Of a DNA stretch of 64,000 bases, positions 4,545 to 63,527 are shown in pieces. The position numbers and the translations under genes were made by a program. The notes under the pieces are model-generated. The model had not been told where the DNA came from, made no database searches, and was given only the letters and a program-made list of their open reading frames with translations. The number at the start of each line of letters is the position of its first letter. The stretch's first letter is position 1. Origin of the DNA: an uncultured bacterium (GTDB lineage Bacteria > Patescibacteriota > Minisyncoccia > Phycocordibacterales > UBA6065); assembly GCA_966243015.1 (NCBI GenBank), contig CBIMES010000001.1, forward strand, positions 426,076 through 490,075. Direction: 5' to 3'.

Positions 4545-5495
4545 CTACGCAAGCTTATTGAAGACACGGAGCTTCTCCTCGACGACGCGCTGCATGGCAG
4601 AAACCGTCGGCCTGAGAAGCTTATACGGAGCAACCTCGTCGGGGGTCGCGGTGACGGACGCCTTGAGCGCATCGCGGAACGCCACGCGAAGCTCGGTATT
4701 CACGTGAATGATGGCGACGCCCGCGTCGATAGCGGCGCGGAAATCGTCGGCAGAATTGCCGGACCCTCCGTGAAGGACGAGCGGAAGGCCAGTCGCCTCA
4801 GAAATCTCCCTGATGCGAGCGATATTAAGAGCCGGGTCAACGCCACCCTTGAGCATGCCATGGATGTTGCCGACCGCCGGCGCAAGCATGTCTACGCCCG
4901 TCGCCTCGGCAAAGCGCTTCGCCTCGTCAGGCTTGGTGAGGAACTCCTCGGAAATCTTCACGCCCTCGGGAATACCGTCAAGAACCTTTGACGACTTGCC
5001 GATGAAGCCGATTTCGGCCTCGACCATGATGTCACGGCCCTCGGCCCTGGCGCTGGAACGAACGTAGTCGACGCACTTTTTCGTGGCCGCCACGTTGTCG
5101 TCGAAATTCTGCTCGGTGCCGTCATAGATGCACGCGTCGTAGCCCGCGTCGACAACCTCCTTCACGCGATCAAATGAATAGGTGTGATCTGCGTTGATGA
5201 AAACAGGTTGGCCCGTCTCGGCGCGATAGCTTTCGACGAGCGCCTTCGCCTGAGCGACCCCAACGAAGTCTCGCTCGCCCTCTGACACGCCGATAATGAC
5301 CGGAATCTCTCGCCCTGACTCCTTGGACACGACCTCGGCAGCCTTCACCACCGCCCAGAAACCCTCGATGTTTGAGATATTGAAGTGGCCGATGGCGACC
5401 TTGCGAGCGAGGGCATCGTTTACGAGCGATCGCAGCGAAGGACCCTTTGAGGCTGACATCGCCGCGGACTTCCCTCCCTTGAAAAATTTGAACAT
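4545..5495 (-). CDS. fba: Fructose-bisphosphate aldolase, class II
   Basis: Class II FBA motifs (HFNISNIEG, DHTYSFD, LHGGSG). Start trimmed to MFKFFKGG (ATG at 5495), which sits after a terminator hairpin and an AT-rich promoter region. Confidence 0.9.
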   Translation of the reverse strand: MFKFFKGGKSAAMSASKGPSLRSLVNDALARKVAIGHFNISNIEGFWAVVKAAEVVSKESGREIPVIIGVSEGERDFVGVAQAKALVESYRAETGQPVFINADHTYSFDRVKEVVDAGYDACIYDGTEQNFDDNVAATKKCVDYVRSSARAEGRDIMVEAEIGFIGKSSKVLDGIPEGVKISEEFLTKPDEAKRFAEATGVDMLAPAVGNIHGMLKGGVDPALNIARIREISEATGLPLVLHGGSGNSADDFRAAIDAGVAIIHVNTELRVAFRDALKASVTATPDEVAPYKLLRPTVSAMQRVVEEKLRVFNKLA

Positions 5496-5562
5496 GCGTA
5501 AAGTGTAACACAATAAAAAAGGCCCCAAGGAATTGCTTCCAAGGGGCCAATTGGCCCAAACG

Positions 5563-5913
5563 TTAGCCACAAGGTGACGGCATGCTTCCGACAAGCCGCT
5601 CTTCCATGTCGTGGAGAGCGTTGCGGACCAGCTTTGACACCTGCTCGGGATTTCTGATGGGCTCGCAGAAATCTCGTTGAAACGAACAGACGTAACCATC
5701 GTATTCGAACGACCACTGGACATCGGGCTCGCAATCGCTGCCGAAGACATCGGCGAGCGCCTGAGCGATGGCGCCCGTGGTGTCTCGAATTTCTCGGAGA
5801 ATCGCGGCGAAATAAACCACGGTTCCCTCGATCTTTACGATACCCAGCTTTCCCGACTCGCCAACACCTTGAACGTGCTGGAGGTTTTCGAACTTAACGT
5901 CGCGGACTTTCAT
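5563..5913 (-). CDS. Hypothetical protein (116 aa)
   Basis: ORF-track ORF with plausible composition and a downstream hairpin terminator at about 5500-5540. No recognisable family. Confidence 0.45.
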   Translation of the reverse strand: MKVRDVKFENLQHVQGVGESGKLGIVKIEGTVVYFAAILREIRDTTGAIAQALADVFGSDCEPDVQWSFEYDGYVCSFQRDFCEPIRNPEQVSKLVRNALHDMEERLVGSMPSPCG

Positions 5914-6108
5914 ACATCAATGAACGAACCAGACACAGTGAATCGCATGTTTTGAGAGCCCAATTCGTTGGCTCAAGAGCGCGTGCCGTCATAGGGCGAC
6001 TCCGTACTCTACCTTTCATAATTATACACCCAAAAATAGGTATTTGTCAATATGCAAAAACCCCTGTTTTCAAAGGCTTTTCAGGGACAAACTTGGTACA
6101 ATATCCGC

Positions 6109-7104
6109 ATGTTTTCAAAACCAACAGACTTCCTGGCGATCGGTGACACGGTGACCGACGCATTCATTAGACTCAAGGAAGCCCACGTCACCTGTACCAT
6201 CGATAAGGACAACTGCGAGCTCTGCATGAAGTTCGGCGACAAGATCCCCTACGAGTCCGTCACCATCGTGAAGGCAGTCGGCAACAGCGCAAACGCCGCG
6301 GTGTCGGCGGCGCGACTCGGCCTCCGCTCTTCCCTCCTCACCAATCTCGGAGACGACCAGAACGGCAGGGACGCCCTCATCGAGCTCAAGAGAAATGGCG
6401 TCGACACGAAACACATCAGCCTCAGCAAAGGCATCGAGACCAACTACCACTACGTGCTCTGGTACGGCGACGAGCGAACCATTCTTGTGAAGCATCAGGA
6501 CTTCCCGTATCGCCTGCCGAAGATGAAGAACCCGAAGTGGGTGTACGTCAGCTCCCTCGGCGGCACCTCCTACGAGTATCATCTCGAGATTACAAGATGG
6601 CTCGAGGCGAATCCTGACATCAAGGTCGTCTTCCAGCCCGGAACGTTCCAGATGAACCTCGGTTACGAAAAGCTCGCCGCTCTCTACAGACGCTCGGACA
6701 TCTTCTTCTGCAACAAGGAAGAGGCCCAGCGTATCCTCGGCACGACCGAAGGCGACATCAAGACGCTCATGACGATGATGCGCGAGAAGGGCCCGAAACT
6801 CGTCGTCATCACCGACGGCCCGCGCGGCGCGTATACGTTCGACGGCACCGACGCCTTCTTCATGCCGCCCTACCCTGACCCAAAGGCGCCCTTCGAGCGC
6901 ACCGGCGCGGGCGACGCCTTCGCATCGACCTTCACAGCTGCCATCGCCCTCGGCAAAACCGTGGCGGAGGCCCTGACCTGGGCCCCAATCAACTCGGCCT
7001 ACGTCGTACAGGACATTGGCGCCCAGCGAGGACTCCTCACCCGCGAGCAACTCGAGAAATACCTTGCCACCGCCCCGGCAGACTACAAACCTCAGAAGAT
7101 CTAG
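6109..7104 (+). CDS. PfkB-family carbohydrate kinase (ribokinase-like)
   Basis: GD/DTVTD N-terminal motif and TGAGDAF anion-hole motif. Start chosen at MFSKPTDFLAIGD inside ORF 6052..7104. Confidence 0.85.
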   Translation: MFSKPTDFLAIGDTVTDAFIRLKEAHVTCTIDKDNCELCMKFGDKIPYESVTIVKAVGNSANAAVSAARLGLRSSLLTNLGDDQNGRDALIELKRNGVDTKHISLSKGIETNYHYVLWYGDERTILVKHQDFPYRLPKMKNPKWVYVSSLGGTSYEYHLEITRWLEANPDIKVVFQPGTFQMNLGYEKLAALYRRSDIFFCNKEEAQRILGTTEGDIKTLMTMMREKGPKLVVITDGPRGAYTFDGTDAFFMPPYPDPKAPFERTGAGDAFASTFTAAIALGKTVAEALTWAPINSAYVVQDIGAQRGLLTREQLEKYLATAPADYKPQKI

Positions 7105-7111
7105 AATGAAC

Positions 7112-7146
7112 GCAAAACTACGCCGGGAATTCCCGGCGGCGTTTTG
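7112..7146. terminator. Palindromic hairpin between the kinase gene and the PAP2 gene (gcaaaactacgccgggaattcccggcggcgttttgc)
   Basis: Inverted repeat read directly. Confidence 0.6.
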
Positions 7147-7154
7147 CTGTCTTG

Positions 7155-7712
7155 CTATCTGCCTCTCTTAATATAGTTGCTTCGAGGCCTGAAGAGAAAA
7201 CGGTCGAGCCACGAGAAGAACCAAAGCAAGAGACCGCCGAGAAGCCAGCCGGCAAACACCTGGGAGGGATAATGAACACCGAGATAGACGCGCGAGAGAC
7301 CGACAGCCAGGATTATGAGCAAGACGCCCGAGGTCAGAACCCAGCTGCGTGGATGGCGAAGCCAGATCCACCCAAGCACCGCGACCGAAACAAGCGCGTG
7401 GCCGGAAGGCATCGCGGACGACGCCTCGAGAGCGTATTGGAATATGCCCGCGTCAATCGTGTAGGGCCGAGGCGCGTTGATGAGGGCCTTGAGCCCGTAA
7501 ACCACGCCAAGCGAGCAGAGAAAGATGACGGCAGTCTCAAGAGCGACGCGCTTTTTCTGTATGAGAGCGAGGGCGAGAATGAGAACGACAACCGGAAGGT
7601 ACGGGCTGCCAAAAGAACCCGACACAAGAAGCGCGACGGACTGCCACGCAGGACCAATCGCCTGGATGGCGTAGAGAAGGACCGTGTCGAAATGAGTGAT
7701 CTGCTCAATCAT
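7155..7712 (-). CDS. PAP2-family phosphatase (membrane)
   Basis: PSGH and SRVYLGVHYPSQV acid-phosphatase motifs with TM helices. Confidence 0.8.
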   Translation of the reverse strand: MIEQITHFDTVLLYAIQAIGPAWQSVALLVSGSFGSPYLPVVVLILALALIQKKRVALETAVIFLCSLGVVYGLKALINAPRPYTIDAGIFQYALEASSAMPSGHALVSVAVLGWIWLRHPRSWVLTSGVLLIILAVGLSRVYLGVHYPSQVFAGWLLGGLLLWFFSWLDRFLFRPRSNYIKRGR

Positions 7713-37356: not shown

Positions 37357-37923
37357 CTAGTATTTGCGGATAACGCCCTTCACGACGGCGACGATGTGAA
37401 GGTCGTACTCGGGATAGATGGGCTTGTAGTTCCTGTTGGCTGGCTCGAGGTAGATCTGATTGCCCTTCTTGCGGTAGAACTTCATGGTCCAGCCGCCGTC
37501 CACCTCGGCGATGACGATGTCGCCAACCTTGGCATTGTCGGTTTTCTCGGCAACGACGAGGTCGCCCTCCCTGATGCCCTCCTCGATCATGGAGTCGCCC
37601 TTCACCTCGAGAAGGTATGTCTTCTCGCGATCCTCGACGAGATAGGTATTGAGGTTAAGGGTGTCGAGAGTGTGCTCTTCGGCGACCATTGGGATACCCG
37701 CCTCGACGAGACCGAGAAGTGGAACCTCGTCCATCATGCGCGTCGGCGAGAGCTTGCCCTGGGCGTCCTTGGTCACGACGCCAGCCTCAATCAGCTTGTT
37801 GATGAGTTTGTAGACGGCGTTCTTTGACTTGAAGCCGGTGAGATCCATGATCTCCTTGTAGCCGGGCATGCGCTTGTGCGTCGCGTAGAAGCCGGTGATC
37901 TGTGTCTTGTACTTCTCGAACAT
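37357..37923 (-). CDS. lexA: LexA repressor
   Basis: N-terminal wHTH region and C-terminal S24 peptidase motifs (GDSM and a KxGD Ser-Lys dyad region). Start trimmed to MFEKYKTQITGF (ATG 37923). Confidence 0.9.
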   Translation of the reverse strand: MFEKYKTQITGFYATHKRMPGYKEIMDLTGFKSKNAVYKLINKLIEAGVVTKDAQGKLSPTRMMDEVPLLGLVEAGIPMVAEEHTLDTLNLNTYLVEDREKTYLLEVKGDSMIEEGIREGDLVVAEKTDNAKVGDIVIAEVDGGWTMKFYRKKGNQIYLEPANRNYKPIYPEYDLHIVAVVKGVIRKY

Positions 37924-37958
37924 TAAGTAAGGGGTGTAAGGGTCTCGCCTATTATATC

Positions 37959-38168
37959 CTAGAGGGTAAACGACGCGACCATCTGACCTGCCCTCTCGAT
38001 CCACGATGGCTGATGAGTCTTCGTGAGGTACTGGAGCTGGGCGATGAGGAACTTGTGTCGGCGGGCGTCCCTCTTGTAGGACTGGCCCTTGATGATCTTC
38101 ATGTCGATGGCCCAGTTGAGTGCCACGATCTCCTTCTTGATGGTCTTTGCGAGGGTTGTCTTGCTCAT
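37959..38168 (-). CDS. Small SOS-regulated hypothetical protein (69 aa) co-transcribed with lexA
   Basis: Start MSKTTLAKT at 38168 lies 45 nt downstream of a promoter carrying the LexA box. The longer ORF-track start at 38255 would lie upstream of that promoter. Confidence 0.5.
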   Translation of the reverse strand: MSKTTLAKTIKKEIVALNWAIDMKIIKGQSYKRDARRHKFLIAQLQYLTKTHQPSWIERAGQMVASFTL

Positions 38169-39171: not shown

Positions 39172-39394
39172 CGCGGGAGAGCTTCTTAATGCGAGCCTCC
39201 TCGACCGAGGCTGACGACCTGTCGGGAAAGGCCCTCGAGTACACGAGCCTCACCGGGCGACGGCTGCGGGTGTATTTTGCGCCCCTTGATCCAGGGGCGG
39301 CAGAGTTGTGCTCCTCCACCCTGCGGGCGAGGTCGGTCGTGATGCCCGTGTAGAGGGTGTTGTCGGAACAGAGGAGGATGTAGAGGTGGTACAT
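39146..39394 (-). CDS. GIY-YIG nuclease family protein (82 aa)
   Basis: YHLYILLCSDNTLYTGITTDLARRVEEH matches the GIY-YIG catalytic module. The ATG overlaps the DUF2075 stop codon (TAATG). Confidence 0.85.
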   Translation of the reverse strand: MYHLYILLCSDNTLYTGITTDLARRVEEHNSAAPGSRGAKYTRSRRPVRLVYSRAFPDRSSASVEEARIKKLSRDEKLALAR

Positions 39395-41364
39395 TAAATT
39401 TCCTTAAACCCAATACTTTTTAAGTAACCGTAGGTTTCGTCGTAAAATTCTGGGCTACGTGTCGAATCATTCGCATCTCCGTTGGGCACAACAATAACCA
39501 TGCCCTGTCGTGCACGAGTTAGCAAAACACGATAGGCGTTTTTCTGATATGTCTGCCTCTCTTCTTTTTTAATATTCTGCCATCTACTGCCAACAAAGGA
39601 ATAATGACCCCATGCATCTCCCGTATACCTAAAGTCCCCATCCCAAACCACACAAGACCAGTCGAGCTCAAGACCCTGAATGTCAAACTCAGTAGCAACA
39701 TCCTCCATGTAGTACGACGAACGAACATCGTCCTTTCCATCCAAAAACCAGTGAACCGGATCAACCGTTGACTTAACGAATATGGCATGCGGCCGTAGAC
39801 GCTCCGCCTGAGATGAGACGATCATCCCGTAACGCTCGCTTCCACGCGCATGTGTTTTAATCCAATCCTTTGCCATCTTAATGTCACGAGTGATTACTAT
39901 TGGATACTTTTCGTGTAACCCCTCCAAAGTTTTGCTTGCTTGCAACGGCCTTATATCAAGAACCTCTTTTACCAATTTAGAGACATTTTCAGCACGAAAA
40001 GAACGCATCGAAACCGCAAGGTGCAATTCGTCAATGAAATGAACATTTTTTTGGTTTTTAATTTTCTCAATAATTTCACCGCTACCGTATTCCGAGTCAG
40101 TGAGGCGTGGCGAAACATATATTTCCCATTCAGGGAAGGATCCATTGAGGCAATTTATCCATTCTTTTATACCTCCCTCACCCGTATGAATCTCCTGTCC
40201 GCCGCCGACAAGGCACACAACGGTCGCCCAATCATTGTGCCTATCCATACACGAAATAAGAAATTCTGGCTCTGAAAGATTAAAATCTTGCTGCCCTTTT
40301 TTCCTTCGCATGAAATCGACCGTCTGCTTTTTATCCCAAGCACGTTGCGCCTCATCAAAAAGTGCCACGTGCTCAATTGGCGCTTTCTGCCCCCGAAGAC
40401 AATCGTCTCTAAAGTGGTGAACGTTTTGGATAAACAAACTAACTTCACGAATTGCGTCTTTTTTTGTAAATCTATTTCCTTTTTCCTTTTCCCTTGCGAC
40501 ACGATCTCGCGCCAAAGCCTCTCGTAGAATCGAAACAAGAGGACCGTTCCCCGAAAGATACACGCTATATAAATCACTGTCCTTATCAAGGTGTTTTTGA
40601 GCCACATCAAGTCCGACAAGCGTCTTGCCCGCACCGGGAACACCGGTCACAAAACAAATCGATTTACGCCCATTTTTCTTAGAATCAGCTATAACGCCTG
40701 AAACACGAGCAACGGTGTTTTTGAGATTTATGGCACCCGCATCTGAACGAGAGATACTTTCAACTGCATGTCCGCGATAAAGCGACATTGCAGCTTCTAC
40801 AATCGTAGGTGTTGGGCTATATATGCCGTCTTCCCACTTACGTTGGTTTATTTTCCCTGAGTCAACAAATTTTTCGAGCAGAGAAAAAATATCTTTCACA
40901 CCCTCGGCATTGACAGCAATGGGCTGAAAAACCTTATCTTCTTGCTTCGAAAATTGAGGGGTTACGATAGTTTGTTTTGCCTCTGTTGCAACAAGAACAG
41001 GGGCAATGTATATATCATGGCTAGTGCTGTGAAAATTTTTGAGATCCAGGGCATAATCCCAGACTTGATCAAGTGCATATGAGGCATATGCCGATTCGCC
41101 CACCTTAAACTCAATAACGTATAAAGTGTTCCCGGTAATAACCACGGCGTCTATACGCCTTCCCATTCGGGGAATTGAGTATTCGAAATAAATAGCACCG
41201 TCCTTATTTTTTAACGCTTCCTTCAATAACCTGATCTGTGCAATCCACGTGTCTCGTTGGGCTTTGATCACATCAAAATCACTGCTTGCGGTGATCTTGC
41301 CAAGGACAGTATCGACGTCTTCACCTAGAAACGATTGTATCGTATTTGAGTAAAAGTGATTCAC
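39394..41364 (-). CDS. DUF2075 (Schlafen-like) nuclease-helicase: N-terminal PD-(D/E)xK-like module and P-loop SF1-like ATPase
   Basis: N-terminal RIDAVVITGNTLYVIEFKV (D...ExK), Walker A GVPGAGKT, C-terminal YRVLLTRARQGMVIVVP typical of the DUF2075 end. GC about 42% against a 60% background. Confidence 0.85.
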   Translation of the reverse strand: MNHFYSNTIQSFLGEDVDTVLGKITASSDFDVIKAQRDTWIAQIRLLKEALKNKDGAIYFEYSIPRMGRRIDAVVITGNTLYVIEFKVGESAYASYALDQVWDYALDLKNFHSTSHDIYIAPVLVATEAKQTIVTPQFSKQEDKVFQPIAVNAEGVKDIFSLLEKFVDSGKINQRKWEDGIYSPTPTIVEAAMSLYRGHAVESISRSDAGAINLKNTVARVSGVIADSKKNGRKSICFVTGVPGAGKTLVGLDVAQKHLDKDSDLYSVYLSGNGPLVSILREALARDRVAREKEKGNRFTKKDAIREVSLFIQNVHHFRDDCLRGQKAPIEHVALFDEAQRAWDKKQTVDFMRRKKGQQDFNLSEPEFLISCMDRHNDWATVVCLVGGGQEIHTGEGGIKEWINCLNGSFPEWEIYVSPRLTDSEYGSGEIIEKIKNQKNVHFIDELHLAVSMRSFRAENVSKLVKEVLDIRPLQASKTLEGLHEKYPIVITRDIKMAKDWIKTHARGSERYGMIVSSQAERLRPHAIFVKSTVDPVHWFLDGKDDVRSSYYMEDVATEFDIQGLELDWSCVVWDGDFRYTGDAWGHYSFVGSRWQNIKKEERQTYQKNAYRVLLTRARQGMVIVVPNGDANDSTRSPEFYDETYGYLKSIGFKEI

Positions 41365-41447
41365 GGCTTTTTTGTGGTTGTTGTTTAGGTATTATATTTA
41401 TACTAACACCCAACATACCTGAAAATCTCTTAGATTTCACACAAAAT

Positions 41448-41912
41448 TCACTTCGCGAGCCTGAATCTTCCGGTAATATTCCATGGTAGTCTTTTAAGAT
41501 TTTTCCTCTTAATATCATGCTCCCAAATCACCACCGTCTTCCACCCCTCCCTCTTAAGCGCCCTGAGATTTTTTCGATCCCTCGCCCTATTGCCCAATAT
41601 CTTATGTGACCAAAACTCGGTGTTAGTCTTGGGCATTCCCTTGGTACACTTCCTGCACCCGTGCCAGAAACAGCCGTTGATAATGATGGCAATCTTTCGC
41701 CCAGGAAAGGCGATGTCGGGCTTACCGGGGGCCTTCTTCCAGTGAAGTCGGTAGCCGCGAATGCCGAGCGAAGACAAATGCTTGCGCACGATAAGCTCAG
41801 GCTTCGTATTCTTGGACTTGTTAGCGAGCATCACGTTCCTCACCGCGATGCTTGTCGAAACGGGAGTCGGCGGACGTTTCGCAGGCTTCTTTTTTGATAA
41901 TTTCCTTATCAT
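41448..41912 (-). CDS. vsr: Very-short-patch-repair endonuclease (Vsr-like)
   Basis: KPDIAFPGRKIAIIINGCFWHGC and later WEHD match the Vsr family. No DNA m5C methyltransferase gene is adjacent. Confidence 0.85.
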   Translation of the reverse strand: MIRKLSKKKPAKRPPTPVSTSIAVRNVMLANKSKNTKPELIVRKHLSSLGIRGYRLHWKKAPGKPDIAFPGRKIAIIINGCFWHGCRKCTKGMPKTNTEFWSHKILGNRARDRKNLRALKREGWKTVVIWEHDIKRKNLKRLPWNITGRFRLAK

Positions 41913-45569: not shown

Positions 45570-46025
45570 CTAGCGCTCGAGTTTGCCGATCATACTGAAC
45601 ACCTCGGCGTCGGACATGACGGTGGGAGCGGCGACGATCTTCCAGTCCCGACGGAGGGCCAGGCGGTATTGGAGGATGACCGAGTGATCAGCGTCCCCTT
45701 CCGCCGCGATTTCCGCCATCATCGCCTGGGCGATGACATACAAGGCGTCGAGCCGGGTGGCCCTGACGCGCCGCGCGGCCGCCACCTTGGAATCGACGCT
45801 GATGCTGGCAGCATTCAAGACGTCGCGGTCCTGACGAAGCCGGTGGATGAGGGACGCGAGGGCCTTGAGCTCGTCAGACGCCTCGCCGACCTCGGTCTCG
45901 CCGGTGACGACGGGCGGGAACTCCCTGCCAGTGAGGCAGATGGGCTCGCCCCTGCGAATGCGAACGAAGAACTCCAACAGGGCGCTTCTCTGGCAGGCAG
46001 ACTTACTGGGTGCTGAACTAGTCAT
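45570..46025 (-). CDS. Hypothetical protein (151 aa) adjacent to pheA
   Basis: ORF with the start trimmed to MTSSAPS. The family was not recognised. Confidence 0.4.
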   Translation of the reverse strand: MTSSAPSKSACQRSALLEFFVRIRRGEPICLTGREFPPVVTGETEVGEASDELKALASLIHRLRQDRDVLNAASISVDSKVAAARRVRATRLDALYVIAQAMMAEIAAEGDADHSVILQYRLALRRDWKIVAAPTVMSDAEVFSMIGKLER

Positions 46026-46114
46026 GGTGACAAGGAACGATGGTTTAAGACAGGGTCGGAATAACCCGTCACTGCCAAAAACCATACTTCAAAAACGAGA
46101 AAAGTCAACAAACC

Positions 46115-46372
46115 CTATCGCCGCAAACCATCCATCCTATTGACCGTCGCCTTGAGGTCACGAACCTCGCCCGCGAGATTTACGAGCTGAACCCCGAAAG
46201 AACGCAGGGAGTCGGAAAGATCCCGCACGCTTTCCTTGAGCCAGCGAACGTCGCTCTCGAGGGCGCTGAACCTGTTTCCCGAAAACCAGGCAATGCCCAT
46301 GAGAAAACCAGATATTGCGGTAATGATCCCGATGAACTGCGGCCAGCCTATTTGTATGATGATGTCTTGCAT
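46115..46372 (-). CDS. Small membrane/coiled-coil protein (85 aa)
   Basis: N-terminal TM helix followed by a heptad-like region. Confidence 0.4.
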   Translation of the reverse strand: MQDIIIQIGWPQFIGIITAISGFLMGIAWFSGNRFSALESDVRWLKESVRDLSDSLRSFGVQLVNLAGEVRDLKATVNRMDGLRR

Positions 46373-46428: not shown

Positions 46429-48162
46429 TTAAAGACTCGGCCCCGCCGCGTACCCGAGTATCGCCCGCGCGAGCCGGAGGTGAAGAAACGAAACGTTCGC
46501 CCCCGCCCTGCTCTTGAGCGGCGAGAGAAGAATCTGCGACAAGGGCTGTCCGTCCGCGTCCACCTGACCCTGCTTCTCCATGTGGGCAAGCTCGTCCTCG
46601 AAGGCCTTCTCGATCTTCTTCCAGTGCGCGGGACTGATTTCTTTTTTGAGATACGAGATATTCGCGGGCGAGATGTACCCGTCGGCCATGAGCTTCTCGA
46701 TATGCGAGACGACCGTCTCGGCCGTGACGCCGCGATGCATCGCCATGTCGGCGAGGCCCTGTTGCTCCTCGATGAGGACAAGCGTCTCCTCGAAGGTCGA
46801 CGGCTTCTTCTCCTTGGGCTGCGAGCGGGCGCCCTTGAGGAAAAGCTCCTGGGCCTCGCGGAGAGCCTTCTCCCCCATCTCCTCCAGGTCAGAGAGCGCC
46901 TCATCCGAGAGCTGCTGTAGCTCCGCGTCGAATTCGAGCACCTCGTTGTGCACCTGAAGCGCCGCCTCGTTCATGCCAAGGATCGTCAGACCCTCGAGCG
47001 AACGGACGCGCGACAGCGCCACATACCCCATGCCCGGCGTGAACGACTTGGACAGGTCAACCTCGACCGCGTCGAGGGACATGCCCTGGCTCTTGTGCAC
47101 CGTGATGGCCCAGGCGAGGCGCAGCGGGTACTGGGAGAGCTCGGCCTTCACCTTGCCGTCCTCCTCGATCTTCCAGCTCGCCCGCTCAATCTTGATGATC
47201 TGGCCCGCCGCAGTGCGGATGACGGGATCCTGATTCTCCTTGCACGAGATGACGATGCCGAGCGTGCCGTTCACATACCCCTCCTCGAAGTTGTTCTTGA
47301 CGCACATGACGCGCGCGCCGACTTTGAGACGCAAGAGCTCTGGCGCGAGGCACGACTTCTTGAGCGTCTCGACGAGGGCGTCCCTGCCCTTGGTCTCCAT
47401 GTAGTACTCGACCTCGCCCTCGCTCTTGAGGCGGTCGAGTTCCTGCTCGTTGAGCAGATCGACGTCGGCGTTGTGCGTGAAGAGGCGTGTCGGCTCGATC
47501 GAGAGCGACAGCTTTGCCTTAAAACGCTCCTGCAAATACTCGCGAGACGAGTCAGTGACGTCGCCACGGCGGATCTCGTTCAGTATCGAGAGCATGTAGT
47601 TGTCGTCCTTCTGGCGGAACTGCTCGGTGAGATAGCAGATGGTGAACTTGGCCTCCTGCCAGGCGTCTGACCTATATATGAAGAGAGACTCCGGCTCGCC
47701 CTGTCGCGTGACGGGAGGCAGCTGGAAGAAGTCGCCGCAAAGCACGACCTGCACGCCGCCGAAAGGCTTCATGTTGCCCTTCATGTTCTGGAGGACTTTG
47801 TTCACGAGATCAAAGCGGAAGTGATGAAGCATCGAAACCTCGTCGATGATGAGTACCTTCACCTTCTCGAAGCGCTTGGACAGGTACGACTTCTCGAACA
47901 TGCCCTCGAGGTCCGCCTGCGTGAGGGACGCGGCGATGCCGATGCCCGCCCACGAGTGAATGGTCATGCCTCCCATGTGGGTGGCGGCGATTCCCGTGGA
48001 CGCCGTGATGCCCGCGTCGATGAGGTTGTCGCGCAGGTACTTTATATAGGAATTGATGAGATGCGTCTTTCCCGACCCGGCCGGGCCGGTGACAAAGACG
48101 TTCCTTCCTGTCTTGAGTATTTCGAGAGCCTGGGCCTGGGTCATGCAGGGAGATTGTATCAC
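46429..48162 (-). CDS. Pif1/RecD-family SF1B ATP-dependent DNA helicase with C-terminal HTH-like extension
   Basis: Walker A GPAGSGKT, motif LIIDEVSM, and helicase motifs through VHKSQG. The C-terminal 120 aa form an extra helical domain. Confidence 0.9.
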   Translation of the reverse strand: MIQSPCMTQAQALEILKTGRNVFVTGPAGSGKTHLINSYIKYLRDNLIDAGITASTGIAATHMGGMTIHSWAGIGIAASLTQADLEGMFEKSYLSKRFEKVKVLIIDEVSMLHHFRFDLVNKVLQNMKGNMKPFGGVQVVLCGDFFQLPPVTRQGEPESLFIYRSDAWQEAKFTICYLTEQFRQKDDNYMLSILNEIRRGDVTDSSREYLQERFKAKLSLSIEPTRLFTHNADVDLLNEQELDRLKSEGEVEYYMETKGRDALVETLKKSCLAPELLRLKVGARVMCVKNNFEEGYVNGTLGIVISCKENQDPVIRTAAGQIIKIERASWKIEEDGKVKAELSQYPLRLAWAITVHKSQGMSLDAVEVDLSKSFTPGMGYVALSRVRSLEGLTILGMNEAALQVHNEVLEFDAELQQLSDEALSDLEEMGEKALREAQELFLKGARSQPKEKKPSTFEETLVLIEEQQGLADMAMHRGVTAETVVSHIEKLMADGYISPANISYLKKEISPAHWKKIEKAFEDELAHMEKQGQVDADGQPLSQILLSPLKSRAGANVSFLHLRLARAILGYAAGPSL

Positions 48163-48243
48163 CCCGCTCGGCGCGGCGCGCCTTGACGAGAGACCCTATT
48201 CCGCGTGGTCCGCGAAAGGAGCCTTACAGGCTCGCCCAGGGAC

Positions 48244-48762
48244 TCACTTTTTATAAGTCGGGGGTATAAATTCCTTAAGGAATTCAAGGTACGTTTCCTG
48301 CAACTCTGGACGTATCCAATCGTGCCTCAACTGCGAAATATATCTTTTCTCAATCACGTTGAGACAGGTGTCGAAATAAAAGCCACCGGGAGTCGCGACG
48401 AAAATGCACGCATGCGCCCACATATCTTGTATGGCACTCGCATGCCTCACGATATCATCCATGTCGATATGAGACCTGTACTTAACCTCCACGAGATAAA
48501 CCTCCCGAAGCCTTCGATCAATAAGAGCAAAATCGGGCGCACAACGAATCGTATCCAAAACCGCAGCACGCGCACCCTGACTGCTAAACTCAGCGACCGT
48601 TGGCAAGACAGACTCGTATCCAAAAGGTATGACCGTGAATTCGTGAGCCGCCCTGAACATCAGCTCAAAAACCTGCTCAGCAATCTTCCCTTTTATGAGT
48701 TTGTAGTGAAATTCCTGCTCCAAGTTGAGGCTCGTATTCATATGCGATATTGATTGACGCAA
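48244..48762 (-). CDS. Stand-alone PD-(D/E)xK nuclease (Hjc/Mrr-like fold), low GC
   Basis: GKIAEQVFELMF...CAPDFALID...YLVEVKYRS matches the PD-ExK active-site spacing of Hjc-like nucleases. GC about 45%. Confidence 0.6.
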   Translation of the reverse strand: MRQSISHMNTSLNLEQEFHYKLIKGKIAEQVFELMFRAAHEFTVIPFGYESVLPTVAEFSSQGARAAVLDTIRCAPDFALIDRRLREVYLVEVKYRSHIDMDDIVRHASAIQDMWAHACIFVATPGGFYFDTCLNVIEKRYISQLRHDWIRPELQETYLEFLKEFIPPTYKK

Positions 48763-48810
48763 TCATACTGCCCGCAGAGTCAAGAAAACATAAAGAGAAA
48801 GTAAAATTTA

Positions 48811-49230
48811 TTATCTGCCACCAAACCGCTCCTCCTCCCTCTCCTGCACCGCGTCCTCGTCGAGGCCAAAGTGATGCGCGATCTCGTGCCAGAGCGTCTC
48901 GAAGACAACCTCACGCACGGGCTTGCCGCTCTCTGCCGCCTCCTCCTCGATCGGCAGCCGGTACAGCGAGATGACGTCAGGAAACATCACGCCCGCGTCG
49001 TGATACCGCTCGGTCAGGGGCACGCCGCGATAGAGGCCGAGCAGGTCCATGTTCGTCTCGAGCCCCATGTCGCGCATCGTCTCCTCGTCCACCGCCTCCT
49101 CGGCGATGAGGGCGACGTTCCGCACCTTCTCCTTCACCCATTCAGGCAGGCGATCGTACGCCTCGGATATGAGGCCCTCGAATTCCGTCGGCTGAGTGAA
49201 GCCTTCGCTCATTCCCGCAGTATACACCAC
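48811..49230 (-). CDS. Minimal Zn-metallopeptidase family protein (DUF1025-like, HExxH)
   Basis: WHEIAHHFG zincin motif over 139 aa. Confidence 0.7.
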   Translation of the reverse strand: MVYTAGMSEGFTQPTEFEGLISEAYDRLPEWVKEKVRNVALIAEEAVDEETMRDMGLETNMDLLGLYRGVPLTERYHDAGVMFPDVISLYRLPIEEEAAESGKPVREVVFETLWHEIAHHFGLDEDAVQEREEERFGGR

Positions 49231-49232
49231 GA

Positions 49233-49868
49233 CTAGCGCAGAAGGCCCTTGAGCACCGGGTACACCTTCTCGGCGATTCTCAGGTAGCCCTGGTCGTTCG
49301 GGTGTATGGCGTCAGACATAAGGGTGTTGTTGCCGATGAGTCCGTCGAGCACGTCGGGCACGTAGGCCGATCCCGTCTCGTTCGCAAGGCTCTCGAAGCG
49401 ACCCTCAAACGGGTCGGTGAGGAGACCGCCGCGAACGCCGAGCACGAGCGTTATGGCTCCCGTCGCCTGGGCGCGGGCGACGATCTTGTGAAGGTTGAGG
49501 AAGGTCTCGTCAATCGGCACCTTGCGGAGATAGTCGTTGCCGCCGAGGAGGATGATGAGCACCGAGGGCTGGGACTCGAGGGCCTTGTCGAGGCGCTTCA
49601 GGCCGTCGGCCGTGGTGTCGCCCGACACGCCGAGGTTCACGATCTCGCGACTCACCATGCGCGAGAGCAGGACGGAGAGGCTGTTGCCGGGAGTCGCGCC
49701 GACGCCCTGGGCGAGGCTGTCGCCAAGGAGGACGACCGGGCCCTCCTTCGGGGGATAGTTCGTGACGTCGCTTCCCCGGTGGAAGAACCAGAGGATGCCG
49801 AGGAGCGCGACGACGCCGACGGCGACCTCGATCAGGATTCTTTTGTGTACATTCATACGTTCGTACAA
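49233..49868 (-). CDS. SGNH/GDSL hydrolase family protein
   Basis: LGDSLAQG block I, GGNDY block III and DAIHPN block V. Confidence 0.85.
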   Translation of the reverse strand: MYERMNVHKRILIEVAVGVVALLGILWFFHRGSDVTNYPPKEGPVVLLGDSLAQGVGATPGNSLSVLLSRMVSREIVNLGVSGDTTADGLKRLDKALESQPSVLIILLGGNDYLRKVPIDETFLNLHKIVARAQATGAITLVLGVRGGLLTDPFEGRFESLANETGSAYVPDVLDGLIGNNTLMSDAIHPNDQGYLRIAEKVYPVLKGLLR

Positions 49869-49927: not shown

Positions 49928-51199
49928 TTACACCAGAACGATATATTGGACGCACCAGACGCCGATGGCCGTGACGAGGCCGAGCATCGCCGGCACGAAG
50001 GCGATCTTGAAGTACTCGCCGAAGGTAAGCTCCTTGACCATTCCCGTCGCCACCACTCCCGCCGCCGAGCCAATGGCGAGCATCGACCCTCCCGTCGCCA
50101 CGGCGACCGCGAGAAGGGACCAGAGATACGGATCGGTCGACGGCACCATCTTGATGGCGATGGCCGTGAGGGCGATATTGTCGAGCACCGAGGACGCGAA
50201 GCCGAGAAGGCTGTGGCCGACGACCATGCGCGCGAACGACGCCGCCTCCCCATAGAGGAACGCCGAGACGTGCTCGAGCACGCCGAGGGCGGCGAGGGCC
50301 GAGACCGAGAGCAGGATGCCTATGAAGAACTTGATCGAGGAGAGGTCCGCCTTCTGGAGGAGATGCTCGATGGTGGCGGTGAGGTGCGTGTCGCACGGCT
50401 TCCAGCGCTTGAAGAGGTCGATCGCCATCCAGGTCAGGCCCAGGCCGAAGAGCGCTCCGATGACCGGCGAGAGGCCGATCGACTTCATGGCCACCGGCAT
50501 GAGGAACGAGGCGGCGACGAGCGAGAGCACGATCTTCTCCGAGCGCGTGAGGACGATGCCCGCAGGCCTCTCCCCCGTCACGACGCGCGGGCAGTTCACG
50601 ATCTTGCGCCTGAGGAGGAAGAGGGCGACCACGAGAAGGGCCAGCGCCGGCACGAAGGCGAACGAGACGATCTGGAGGGCCGTGAACTTGTTGGCGAGCC
50701 AGAGCATGATGGTCGTGACCGCGCCGATCGGCGACCACGATCCGCCCGCGTTCGCCGCGATGACCACTCCCACCGCCGTGACCGCGAGGTTCCTGCCCGA
50801 AAAGAACTTGCGCGCGATCTGCACCATGACGATCGTCGTCGTCAGGTCGTTGAGCACCGCCGCCAGGAAGAACGTCATGCCGCAGAGCACCGTGAACTGC
50901 GCCCGGTCCGAGAGGCTGTACGAGTCCAGCTTCGCCTTGATGAGGTCAAAGGCGCGATAGTGTCCCGCGATCTCCACGAGCGACATCGCCGCGAGGAGGA
51001 AAACGATGAGGCCAAAGATGTCGGCCGACACGACCGTCAGCTCGTGACCCGCGAGCTGCGGGTCATACGCGCCAAGCAGAATCCACGACACCGCGCCCAC
51101 CGCAAGCGCCACCGCGGACTTGTGAATCTTGAGCTTCGTCTCAAGCGTGATAAGCGCGTAACCGATGACGAAGAGAGCCGAGGCCGCGAACGCAATCAT
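49928..51199 (-). CDS. NhaD/ArsB-superfamily ion transporter (Na+/H+ antiporter-like)
   Basis: 423 aa with 11-12 TM helices and NhaD-like composition. The plus-strand 426-aa ORF 49946..51226 is its antisense. Confidence 0.8.
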   Translation of the reverse strand: MIAFAASALFVIGYALITLETKLKIHKSAVALAVGAVSWILLGAYDPQLAGHELTVVSADIFGLIVFLLAAMSLVEIAGHYRAFDLIKAKLDSYSLSDRAQFTVLCGMTFFLAAVLNDLTTTIVMVQIARKFFSGRNLAVTAVGVVIAANAGGSWSPIGAVTTIMLWLANKFTALQIVSFAFVPALALLVVALFLLRRKIVNCPRVVTGERPAGIVLTRSEKIVLSLVAASFLMPVAMKSIGLSPVIGALFGLGLTWMAIDLFKRWKPCDTHLTATIEHLLQKADLSSIKFFIGILLSVSALAALGVLEHVSAFLYGEAASFARMVVGHSLLGFASSVLDNIALTAIAIKMVPSTDPYLWSLLAVAVATGGSMLAIGSAAGVVATGMVKELTFGEYFKIAFVPAMLGLVTAIGVWCVQYIVLV

Positions 51200-51366
51200 G
51201 GGATTTTGAAAACTTTAAAAAAATAGAGTGGAAGATTCCACGATATTCCTCTCGGGAACAGAATTCAAGCGCGTTGTCCACAGGCCCTCGCGGACGCGTT
51301 GCCTTCCCCACCCACCCTTTATTTTTTGCCCGCAGTATGTTATTTTCTCTGGGCACAGTTTCACAT

Positions 51367-51437
51367 TGCCGGATCGTCTAAAGGTAGGACGTCGCTCTCT
51401 GAAAGCGAAAATTTTGGTTCGATTCCAAGTCCGGCAA
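51367..51437 (+). tRNA. tRNA-Gln (anticodon CTG)
   Basis: Manual fold: acceptor TGCCGGA/TCCGGCA (U1-A72 as in bacterial tRNA-Gln), D-stem GTCT/GGAC, anticodon stem TCGCT/AGCGA with loop CTCTGAA, T-arm TTTGG-TTCGATT-CCAAG, discriminator A. Followed by terminator hairpin aaagccccgtcatatgacggggcttttc (51441-51480). Confidence 0.8.
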
Positions 51438-51526
51438 CACGAAAGAAAAGCCCCGTCATATGACGGGGCTTTTCTTTCGTGCCTGAGAACGAATGCCTGC
51501 CAACCTGCCTATGATACAATTCCAGA

Positions 51527-51958
51527 ATGAAAAAAATTATATGGGCTCTCATTATCATCCTATTGGGCGCAGGCCTCTGGTTTGTCATGTCCAAAGAGGA
51601 CAAGGTCACCGAGAGCGCATGGCAGACGTACGAAAATAAGGATTTCAAATTTACGATTTCGCATCCGGCAGGCTGGACGATTAAGGACACGAGTGCTGAT
51701 TTCGGTTTCATAAACCTGTCAATTAACGGCCCAATCCGATCAGATTTGAAAAGCAACCCAGGATTGCCGGTCTCATATTATTTTAGCCTAGCCATGCCAA
51801 AAGATAGATCAGAGGTGCGATTCAACTTCGGCTGTTTCTCTACCCCCGACAAACCTGGCAACTCACCATGCAACGCGCCAAGCACGATCGAGGAAAACGA
51901 GTCTGCGCCCGAGAATGCAGTCGCACGAGAGATCTTCTCATCATTTAAAGTCAACTAA
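51527..51958 (+). CDS. Hypothetical secreted/anchored protein, low GC
   Basis: Signal anchor and GC about 45%. It lies immediately downstream of tRNA-Gln and ends with a 16-bp-arm perfect hairpin at 52017-52048. Confidence 0.55.
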   Translation: MKKIIWALIIILLGAGLWFVMSKEDKVTESAWQTYENKDFKFTISHPAGWTIKDTSADFGFINLSINGPIRSDLKSNPGLPVSYYFSLAMPKDRSEVRFNFGCFSTPDKPGNSPCNAPSTIEENESAPENAVAREIFSSFKVN

Positions 51959-52195
51959 TCTAGTCCGAGGGATTAATTAGAGTTCCAACATCGTCCCAGA
52001 CGGCCAACACCCAAAAGCAAACACCCGCCACATGTGGCGGGTGTTTGCTTTTGGGTGTTTAATGGAAGCATCGCCTGAGGCGATGCGCCTTGGAATCGAA
52101 AGGGTTCTCCCCTATTTCTGAGGAATTCCAATTTGGCACATACTAAGGCGCACCGAGAAAATGTAAAGGGAGAATAAGTTGCTATACTTCCCCAC

Positions 52196-52615
52196 ATGGA
52201 ACAAAAATCCCTCCGCCCCAAAGTCGGCGTCGCCGTACTCATCATCAAGTACAAGCAGGTCCTCATCGGCAAGAGAAAGGGCGAGCACGGCGACGGCATG
52301 TGGGCCCCTCCCGGCGGACACCTCGAGTTCAGGGAGGACGTCTTCGACTGCGCCCGCCGCGAGGTCCTCGAGGAGACCTCGATGAGAATCAAGAGCCTCC
52401 GCATGGGCCCCATCACGAACGACACCAACCTTCCCGGAGACAAGCACTACGTGACGCTCTTCGTCATCGCCGACCACGACTCGGGAAACCCCGTCGTCAC
52501 CGAGCCTGACAAGTGTTACGAATGGCGCTGGTGCGCCTGGGACAAACTTCCCAAGCCACTCTTCTACGCGCTTCAGAACTTCGTCGACGCCGGACACTCG
52601 CCCTTCGACTACTAG
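52196..52615 (+). CDS. NUDIX hydrolase
   Basis: Nudix box GGHLEFREDVFDCARREVLEETS. Confidence 0.85.
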   Translation: MEQKSLRPKVGVAVLIIKYKQVLIGKRKGEHGDGMWAPPGGHLEFREDVFDCARREVLEETSMRIKSLRMGPITNDTNLPGDKHYVTLFVIADHDSGNPVVTEPDKCYEWRWCAWDKLPKPLFYALQNFVDAGHSPFDY

Positions 52616-63117: not shown

Positions 63118-63527
63118 GGCCCCGCGCGCGCAAAAAGACCCCTGGAGGCTGAAAGCCCCAGGGGTCGAATGCGTCCGTTATGCTGCCTCCGGCCAACCTT
63201 GCGGTCGGCTACCCGTCATAGCCTTGGTGGGCTTTTACCCCGCCAACAAGCTGATAGGACACGAACGCCTGTGAAGTGCTCTTTGCGCGTGAAGCGTAAA
63301 GACTACGATGAACTCTGCGCGAGTTAGGAAACGCAGCCCCTCGTGATCCGGGAAGGTCCGGGACACCTTCCCTTATGCCCGAAGACATACTCCACTGTCG
63401 CTGATTCGCGTATTACTCGCACAAGCCCGAGGGCCTGGGCAGCGCTGGCATCTACTGACAGTCTACGCACCTTTGACTTCGCGTCAAATCTTTGCCGTAA
63501 TCACTTTATTAGGGTAATCTGGGACAC

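Follow-up and report, generated by a model that had tools for sequence, protein, structure and literature searches.

Three tightly spaced genes, encoding a DNA helicase, a small nuclease and a minimal HExxH protein, share one strand of the window, by which is meant the whole stretch of 64,000 nt analysed here, from a Patescibacteria (CPR) genome. The question they pose is whether they work together, as a triad or as the split helicase-nuclease defence pair suggested by a first-pass annotation of the sequence, or simply stand side by side. Our answer, to which we give a probability of roughly 0.8, is that helicase, nuclease and zincin are three functionally independent genes that became neighbours through an accident of insertion. 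The three open reading frames lie where they were first annotated (helicase 46429-48162, nuclease 48244-48762, peptidase 48811-49230), all on the minus strand; because of this shared strand, transcription runs from the zincin through the nuclease to Pif1, the opposite of the gene order originally given. No second copy of the helicase, the nuclease or the zincin is found within the window. The features of the locus are as follows:

46429 to 48144, minus strand: Pif1-family SF1B DNA helicase with a Pif1 2B domain and a C-terminal HTH_40 domain, 571 aa from ATG (Pfam and solved-structure matches)
48153 to 48161, minus strand: extended -10-like box TGaTACAAT, a putative Pif1 promoter, 8 nt upstream of the Pif1 ATG (alignment of relatives)
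48162 to 48828, no strand assigned: variable slot containing the nuclease gene, 667 bp without DNA homology to the closest relative, L082 (blastn)
48244 to 48741, minus strand: stand-alone PD-ExK nuclease-like protein, 165 aa from ATG (419 homologues, invariant motif, AF2 model)
48678-48676 (E29), 48534-48532 (D77), 48489-48487 (E92) and 48483-48481 (K94), minus strand: catalytic codons of the nuclease in 172-aa numbering (invariant positions)
48811 to 49212, minus strand: mini-zincin (Pfam Zincin_1 PF06262, formerly DUF1025), 133 aa, with HEIAHHFGLDED (Pfam 3e-26)
49233 to 49868, minus strand: GDSL/SGNH hydrolase (Pfam Lipase_GDSL_2, 2.3e-22), directly upstream of the zincin with a 2-bp gap

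The helicase is a genuine member of the Pif1 family. Its true start is likely the ATG at 48144, as in its orthologues, the mechanically called frame reaching the GTG at 48162. The profile PIF1 (PF05970) matches at 3.6e-39 (135 bits, cut-off 25.9), Pif1_2B (PF21530) at 1.6e-10 and HTH_40 at 5.5e-09; the Pif1-specific profile, the 2B domain and the full SF1B core are all present, and solved Pif1 proteins match residues 3-413 with E-values of 1e-75 to 5e-38, those from human, yeast and Bacteroides at 1e-75 to 2e-63. Along the sequence lie a Walker A motif (GPAGSGKT), motif II (DEVSM), a Pif1 signature-motif region ending PFGGVQVVLCGDFFQLPPV and the 2B domain; the intact Walker A and DExx motifs are consistent with a predicted ATP-dependent 5'-3' unwinding of DNA. 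Homologues 60-83% identical occur across Paceibacteria-type CPR lineages, the GC3 of 0.85 is native, and in a survey of 80 loci with orthologues (42-89% identical) the gene adjoins housekeeping genes elsewhere, among them those for TrmD, an ABC ATPase, FtsX, RNase R, a P-type ATPase and an M48 peptidase. Pif1-HTH_40 would be a resident, vertically inherited 5'-3' SF1B helicase transcribed from its own promoter and, judging by its family, may act in replication or repair, for example by clearing G4 structures, R-loops or protein barriers. What prokaryotic Pif1 does in the cell is still an open question (PMC3113762), to which the conservation of Pif1-HTH_40 across Paceibacteria adds a modest pointer; literature searches on Patescibacterial Pif1, and on a defence pair of Pif1 and a PD-ExK protein, returned nothing.

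The putative promoter is visible only through the alignment of relatives, the consensus promoter scan being at background. The box TG(A/T)TA(C/G)AAT and its spacing to the Pif1 ATG are common to the window and three relatives (L082, L116 and L093), and farther upstream everything diverges; DNA homology to L082 begins at 48161, the very edge of the box, and in two relatives terminator-like hairpins lie upstream of it. In the window, the consensus scan found no strong terminator between the nuclease and Pif1 genes, its signal staying at background level. Because the two genes lie on the same strand, with about 100 bp between the nuclease stop and the Pif1 start and no strong terminator in this gap, co-transcription by read-through is possible.

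At the other end of the trio, the call of a minimal HExxH zincin was borne out. Zincin_1 (PF06262) matches at 3e-26 (91.7 bits, cut-off 22.4) over 94 of its 97 profile positions, the site H115-E116-x-x-H119 is in place, and the true start is likely at 49212. The family consists of a single small intracellular HExxH domain and is a putative peptidase (PMC3890501). The gene is native in composition (GC3 0.85), and in L082 a zincin 75% identical is likewise positioned after a GDSL gene; a GDSL gene is also found near Pif1 in nine relatives. The mini-zincin would be a resident small HExxH protein travelling with the GDSL hydrolase gene, which is itself a context gene outside any DNA-processing module.

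The nuclease stands apart from both neighbours. Its frame reaches a TTG at 48762 and its true start is likely the ATG at 48741. E29, P76-D77 and E92-V93-K94, which constitute the PD-ExK motif, are invariant in 30 diverse members of its family, and the AF2 model (pLDDT 86.2, pTM 0.80) has a core in the order alpha-beta-beta-beta-alpha-beta, with the catalytic residues falling on the elements H14-38, E78-82 and E87-95. With this catalytic signature and this core fold the protein belongs to the PD-(D/E)xK superfamily, and the structure prediction that had been proposed as a check on the annotated nuclease confirms its fold and active site. Foldseek searches of PDB and BFVD gave weak matches (E about 4e-3, TM 0.3-0.47), the named top ones all being PD-(D/E)xK proteins, namely Hjc, PA-N, RecU, cap-snatching endonucleases and phage resolvases. 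By contrast with the fold, the sequence matches no Pfam (E<=0.01), NCBIfam, PADLOC or PHROGs model, and the family alignment, used as a profile against PDB sequences, returned noise only. The original label of "Hjc/Mrr-like" holds only at the level of superfamily and fails at that of family, neither Pfam Hjc nor Mrr_cat matching the window nuclease (E<=0.01) or appearing among the weak matches of the 30 members.

The nuclease is a member of an unnamed, single-domain family, a branch of the very large, known PD-(D/E)xK superfamily and the sole novelty of this locus. The 419 homologues are almost confined to Patescibacteria and sporadically distributed. An HMM search of 1.84 billion representatives gave 768 cluster representatives, and the 150 of them that were listed are all single-domain proteins or fragments, with no informative domain fusion. 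In 2.9 million viral contigs no relative was found, and a phage origin was rejected for that reason. New stand-alone branches of this superfamily are common, and nothing in the family indicates a new mechanism.

Composition and comparison with relatives bear on how the nuclease came to lie here. As the first-pass annotation had noted, its base composition is foreign, with a GC of 47% and a GC3 of 0.54 against 0.85 in Pif1 and zincin and 0.85-0.91 among the neighbours. DNA homology to L082 extends on the Pif1 side to 48161 and is picked up again at 48829, within the 3' end of the zincin. Between these boundaries L082 carries 1.6 kb of other DNA, with genes for a YafQ-like toxin, a RelB-like antitoxin and a 247-aa hypothetical protein, and a third relative has yet other genes. 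Around the 667-bp insertion, the search for direct or inverted repeats gave only 10-12-mers at chance level. The nuclease is best read as a laterally acquired, single-gene accessory cassette upstream of a resident Pif1. The slot between Pif1 and zincin would be a tolerant intergenic site that takes up different accessory cargo in each close relative and that, in this species, acquired one foreign gene, that of the 165-aa PD-ExK protein.

Conservation of the Pif1-nuclease adjacency in other genomes had been named as the first check on a functional link, and the adjacency turns out to be found only in this species. Seen from the nuclease, Pif1 is adjacent in none of 77 genome loci with a homologue, and the zincin is near in one of the 77; seen from Pif1, the nuclease is present in none of the 80 loci with orthologues. 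Five loci do have a Pif1-like gene within 8 kb of the nuclease, never closer than 4.5 kb and in variable orientation. Set against 75 loci, this count is somewhat above the one or two expected by our own estimate for genomes of about 1 Mb. The neighbourhoods of the nuclease are otherwise heterogeneous: no gene family is shared by more than 11 of 75 loci, and in a Pfam census of 135 immediate neighbours no family exceeds five.

These counts bear directly on the reading of Pif1 and the nuclease, with or without the zincin, as a module of two or three genes against phages or plasmids, in which the helicase would translocate on foreign DNA and hand it to the nuclease. The tight, same-strand spacing of the genes and the foreign composition of the nuclease speak for such a module, as do generic PADLOC matches of the Pif1 ATPase core, at 1e-19 to 1e-21, to helicases of RecD-like type or from candidate systems, whose far longer profiles are covered only in part. 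Against it stand the lack of adjacency in all 77 and all 80 loci, the native composition of Pif1 and zincin, which were not co-acquired with the nuclease, the unrelated cargo of the slot in the closest relatives, the conserved promoter-like box of Pif1's own and the high conservation of Pif1 among housekeeping genes. Moreover, among the PADLOC models of known and candidate defence systems none matches the nuclease or the zincin, Pif1 having the generic matches of its ATPase core only. The comparative data largely refute this reading, which we regard as scarcely credible. Of the two grounds on which the proposal was to fall, one did not materialise, the nuclease being conserved and catalytically intact, and the other did, Pif1 occurring without the nuclease in every relative examined.

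The trio had also been described as mirroring a lexA-proximal islet. The islet exists and comprises S24/LexA-like, YgjP-like, GIY-YIG, DUF2075/SLFN-g3 and Vsr genes, and its likeness to the trio is one of broad domain categories, the two being neither homologous nor co-inherited sets. A different link to the same islet would make the nuclease part of island systems built around a DUF2075/SLFN-like helicase with MazG, GIY-YIG and S24/LexA-like genes, its partner here being the 38.7-41.9 kb islet. Of 75 loci, 6 have a DUF2075 helicase gene no more than 8 kb from the nuclease, and 6 a GIY-YIG gene at such a distance; four loci show, one to three genes upstream and in the same orientation, both a MazG-like gene and one for a DUF2075 helicase, which in L022 is confirmed to be fused to an S24 peptidase, and in the window itself DUF2075, GIY-YIG and S24 genes lie 7-10 kb from the nuclease. 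However, the association concerns less than 10% of loci, the intervening genes vary case by case (HNH, RadC, unknowns), it does not appear in any number among the immediate neighbours, and it may merely reflect common residence in variable islands. Such a partnership is very improbable.

Improbable too is a role of the nuclease as cargo of a small integrative mobile element, or as its accessory in replication and recombination (a resolvase), with the window copy stranded as a remnant of such an element. Among 75 loci there are 7 in which the nuclease lies zero to two genes from a divergent pair of genes, one for a large serine recombinase and one for a rolling-circle Rep (PF23343), and phage Holliday-junction resolvases and RecU are among its best viral fold matches. 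Yet there is neither recombinase nor Rep near the nuclease in the window, and the viral contigs hold no homologue. In four loci, moreover, the nuclease follows what looks by eye like dnaX, whether or not the recombinase-Rep pair intervenes, which suggests that the element inserted beside the nuclease and did not carry it; the idea of element cargo is weakened to that extent.

More generally, the family may be a solitary, CPR-centred one that moves as a one-gene cassette into tolerant slots, recurs beside serine recombinase/Rep elements and MazG/DUF2075 islands, and acts alone as an anti-mobile-element nuclease or an element-borne junction resolvase. We consider this combined picture unlikely; if true, it would add a new minimal player to the genome conflicts of ultra-small episymbiotic bacteria.

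Returning to the reading of three independent genes, the nuclease is predicted to be an active DNA endonuclease, dependent on Mg2+ and without a fixed partner. Its target is most likely either a DNA structure (junctions or branches, as for Hjc and RecU, its neighbours in fold) or foreign DNA; a structure-specific substrate is a guess guided by weak fold matches. Because it has no paired methylase, it probably does not cut just any unmodified sequence. With 768 cluster representatives and no model in Pfam, NCBIfam, PADLOC or PHROG, the family is a possible Pfam entry. For small CPR genomes the lesson is negative but useful: co-directional, tightly packed genes call for comparative evidence before they are taken for an operon or a defence module.

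In comparison with known systems, the likeness of the pair to Hachiman HamA/HamB and Gabija GajA/GajB is superficial and limited to an SF1/SF2 ATPase gene adjoining a nuclease gene. The HamB and GajB models match Pif1 at only 1e-4 to 1e-2, over the P-loop, no PADLOC model exists for the nuclease, and the pair, unlike those systems, is conserved in no other genome examined. The only profile with a consistent signal in the nuclease family is PF08722 (TnsA-like endonuclease N-terminal), weak at E<=1 in 29 of 30 members and covering the segment that contains PD...ExK; it gave 30.4 bits against a gathering threshold of 26.5 for one of five members scanned individually (P0099, outside the 30) and no match for the window protein. 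The C-terminal domain of TnsA is absent from the nuclease, and no TnsB/C or other Tn7-like genes lie nearby. The archaeal Hjc and the bacterial and phage RecU resolvases are likewise small and stand-alone and share with the nuclease its core topology and E...D...ExK signature; they are the top Foldseek matches in PDB and BFVD, but at TM-scores of only 0.3-0.4 and with no match at the level of sequence. The family differs in its own strongly conserved motifs absent from Hjc, IPFGYE after strand 1 and ATPxGFY after strand 4, in a C-terminal helix, and, from a core resolvase, in its sporadic distribution. The zincin matches, over the full length of the Pfam profile, the mini-zincin family of Acel_2062 (Zincin_1/DUF1025; PDB 3e11; provisional MEROPS M94); compared with the pattern HEXXHXXGXXD (PMC3890501), its third-ligand position is Glu125, between Asp124 and Asp126, instead of Asp. 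Finally, the helicase core can be aligned throughout with the bacterial Pif1 proteins of Bacteroides (PDB 5fhd) and Thermus oshimai (PDB 6s3e, E 5e-38) and with the eukaryotic ones of human (6hpt, E 1e-75) and yeast (5o6b), to all of which it adds a C-terminal HTH_40 domain of about 110 aa.

The genes in question belong to a minus-strand run in which all genes are co-directional and which reads, in order of transcription:

49928-51199, minus strand, CitMHS transporter
49233-49868, minus strand, GDSL hydrolase
48811-49230, minus strand, Zincin_1 protein (zincin)
48244-48762, minus strand, small ORF (nuclease)
46429-48162, minus strand, Pif1 helicase
45570-46372, minus strand, two small ORFs of 85 aa and 171 aa, between Pif1 and the prephenate dehydratase gene
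last in the run, minus strand, prephenate dehydratase

The first-pass annotation had described a triad of helicase, nuclease and zincin; all three are present as mechanical ORFs, but they are transcribed in the order zincin, nuclease, helicase. Gene callers and orthologues place the starts differently from these mechanical ORFs, at 48144 for Pif1 (571 aa), 48741 for the small ORF (165 aa) and 49212 for the zincin (133 aa). Neither ORF located 3' of Pif1 has a match in Pfam; the longer one (171 aa) has a weakly conserved counterpart (31% identity) in the same place in L082, the locus of the closest relative.

The small ORF has no match in Pfam, NCBIfam, PADLOC or PHROGs; despite this absence from profile databases, it is clearly a genuine gene, with 419 homologues at E<=0.01, the nearest outside its own species being merely 50-53% identical. 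Of the few named homologues, most come from Patescibacteria and one each from Simkania and Bacteroidota, and loci of Omnitrophota and of MAGs labelled Gammaproteobacteria also hold one. When 30 diverse members are aligned, the residues E29, P76-D77 and E92-V93-K94 (172-aa numbering) prove invariant, as do the family-specific motifs IPFGYE after strand 1 and ATPxGFY after strand 4. The confident AlphaFold model (pLDDT 86.2, pTM 0.80) has the canonical alpha-beta-beta-beta-alpha-beta core of PD-(D/E)xK enzymes, with E29 in the first long helix, D77 where strand 2 begins and the ExK motif on strand 3; the fold and active site proposed from the sequence are thereby confirmed. The top named Foldseek matches are all PD-(D/E)xK enzymes (Hjc ST1444, influenza PA-N, RecU, bunyaviral cap-snatching endonucleases), the phage matches being "Holliday junction resolvase" and RecU proteins; all of these are weak matches (TM 0.3-0.47; the best E values are 4e-3 for PDB and 8e-5 for BFVD), and the label "Hjc/Mrr-like" holds at superfamily level but not beyond. 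The sole profile signal is to the TnsA-like N-terminal endonuclease domain, which 29 of the 30 members match weakly (E<=1) and one homologue scanned separately (P0099) matches above the gathering threshold; the window nuclease itself does not match it. Searching 1.84 billion cluster representatives with an HMM gave 768 matches, 246 of them at 1e-10; those listed are essentially all single-domain proteins of 150-170 aa or fragments, and none carries a domain fusion hinting at function.

Judged from gene neighbourhoods, the proposed helicase-nuclease(-zincin) module is not supported. From the nuclease side, 77 genomic loci that hold a homologue, with flanks of at most 8 kb on either side, were searched by tblastn with the window proteins: Pif1 directly adjoins the nuclease in none (0/77) and lies within 8 kb in five, always 4.5-7 kb away and in either orientation, two of these five being only 31-33% identical to the window Pif1; the zincin and the GDSL hydrolase were each found at one locus. 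Clustering of all flanking ORFs (75 loci) revealed no conserved neighbour, the commonest family being a large serine recombinase (11/75), and among the 135 ORFs directly flanking the nuclease no Pfam family occurs more than five times; the families range from Fic, AbiEii-like ATPases, ResIII and D12 methylase to FtsW, Mur ligase and RNase R-type proteins. From the Pif1 side, the nuclease is absent from all 80 metagenome loci with Pif1 orthologues (42-89% identity), where the recurrent neighbours are housekeeping genes (TrmD, ABC ATPase, FtsX, RNase R, P-type ATPase, glycosyltransferase, M48 peptidase). The adjacency is therefore not conserved: the nuclease persists elsewhere with intact catalytic residues, and Pif1 persists without it. 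At six Pif1 loci of more distant relatives (L130, 6541-7446, and five others), the opposite strand carries an M48 (HtpX-like) HExxH peptidase gene some 150 bp 3' of Pif1, another zincin beside Pif1, convergent and evidently unrelated.

Base composition sets the nuclease gene apart, as the first-pass annotation had noticed: it has 47% GC and a GC3 of 0.54, versus 0.85 in Pif1 and the zincin; GDSL and CitMHS are at 0.88-0.91. In L082 (Pif1 83% identical), DNA homology extends through Pif1 to 48161 and returns at 48829 within the 3' end of the zincin gene; the intervening 667 bp have no counterpart there, where the same slot spans 1.6 kb and holds a YafQ-like toxin and a RelB-like antitoxin on the opposite strand, plus a 247-aa hypothetical protein. 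Other genes again, including one for a DUF2779 protein, lie upstream of Pif1 in L093 (Pif1 82%), and CitMHS directly abuts Pif1 in L084 (74%). The space upstream of Pif1 is thus a variable slot, which the nuclease occupies in the window species only; the identical protein is found on twelve contigs, with the same gene order in the four places examined.

Pif1 itself has at least 8000 scored homologues, the best 120 of which are 60-83% identical across 99% of its length and include, by name, Taylorbacteria, Yonathbacteria, Nomurabacteria, Parcubacteria and Paceibacterota. This conservation across Patescibacteria candidate phyla, together with the native GC3, marks it as a resident, vertically inherited gene. 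In four relatives, a TG(A/T)TA(C/G)AAT box is conserved 8-9 nt 5' of the Pif1 ATG, while the sequences further upstream are unrelated, with terminator-like hairpins in two, from which we infer that Pif1 is transcribed from its own promoter as a near-leaderless mRNA.

The Pif1 set had also been thought to mirror the lexA-proximal islet. That islet is real (S24/LexA-like, YgjP-like, GIY-YIG, DUF2075/SLFN-g3 and Vsr), but what the two sets have in common are broad categories (P-loop ATPase, small nuclease, HExxH protein), not homologous families. Each is compositionally mixed, and the Pif1 set is not co-inherited; in the islet (39394-41912), DUF2075 (GC3 0.41) and Vsr (0.64) look foreign, GIY-YIG (0.80) and YgjP-like (0.78) native. 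The presence of two such sets is best seen as a coincidence within a compact genome that has many genes for DNA metabolism. Both GIY-YIG and YgjP-like overlap the stop codon of DUF2075. The window DUF2075 (39394-41364) is unfused, with a separate S24/LexA-like gene (37357-38004) 1.4 kb away; at L022, a locus with a nuclease homologue, a MazG-like gene precedes a DUF2075/SLFN-g3 helicase with an S24 (LexA/UmuD-like) peptidase domain fused to its C terminus (4611-7285), a hint that SLFN-like helicases may be functionally linked to RecA-triggered self-cleavage. Three further loci (L007, L038, L061) have this MazG-DUF2075 arrangement by cluster membership only.

Because all four catalytic residues are intact and strong purifying selection acts on the family (across distant hosts, mean column identity is 49%), we take the nuclease to be an active endonuclease that depends on metal. 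No methylase regularly accompanies it (methylases account for 3 of the 135 immediate neighbours), it has no extra DNA-binding domain, and its closest folds are junction resolvases, so that the most economical reading is an enzyme that would be specific for DNA structure or foreign DNA and spare the host chromosome. We argue for an accessory role rather than one in core repair because of its sporadic distribution, foreign composition here, residence in variable regions and recurrence beside two gene sets, namely a divergent large serine recombinase with a rolling-circle Rep (seven loci) and MazG-like plus DUF2075 genes, downstream of which it lies in four loci (S24-fused where checked, L022). 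The recombinase-Rep pair (recombinase with Resolvase + Recombinase + Zn_ribbon_recom; Rep with PF23343 REP_ORF2-G2P) looks like a small integrative element. In the CPR loci L013, L018, L034, L036, L051, L053 and L059, it lies some 0.7-3.5 kb upstream of the nuclease homologue, whose position is about 8000 in each. In four loci, the nuclease lies downstream of an apparent dnaX, read by eye, with the pair in between (L051, L053) or without it (L055, L045), and is therefore not clearly recombinase-Rep cargo; no viral homologue was found in 2.9 million viral contigs. That the nuclease represents a CPR-centred, self-sufficient mobile family with a role in genome conflict is a tentative idea, to which we give about one chance in five.

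Elsewhere in the window, bacterial SSU rRNA is detected only as a 230-nt piece at 63190-63419 (minus strand; model positions 107-310, 54 bits). Even a permissive threshold brought out no further 16S parts from 57 to 64 kb; the piece may be a fragment, or the CPR 16S gene here may be highly divergent or interrupted. A low-GC stretch (51228-52250, 47-49%) adjoins tRNA-Gln (51367-51438, plus strand) and is possibly another small acquired islet beside a tRNA gene; it includes an ORF of 143 aa (51527-51958, plus strand) whose N terminus has a hydrophobic segment.

In comparison with known systems, the assignments of the helicase and the zincin both stand. Pif1 carries PIF1 (3.6e-39), Pif1 2B (1.6e-10) and C-terminal HTH_40 (5.5e-09) Pfam domains; its Walker A GPAGSGKT, motif II DEVSM and signature-motif region up to PFGGVQVVLCGDFFQLPPV are all intact, and its whole core aligns with solved human, yeast, Bacteroides and Thermus Pif1 structures (E 1e-75 to 5e-38). 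The zincin matches PF06262 (3e-26), the mini-zincin family of Acel_2062, whose members are putative peptidases (PMC3890501), with the site H115-E-x-x-H119-x-x-G122; exactly where an Asp-zincin would have its third ligand stands Glu125, between Asp124 and Asp126. Pif1 and the mini-zincin are members of already known families, and the nuclease forms an unnamed branch within the very large PD-(D/E)xK superfamily.
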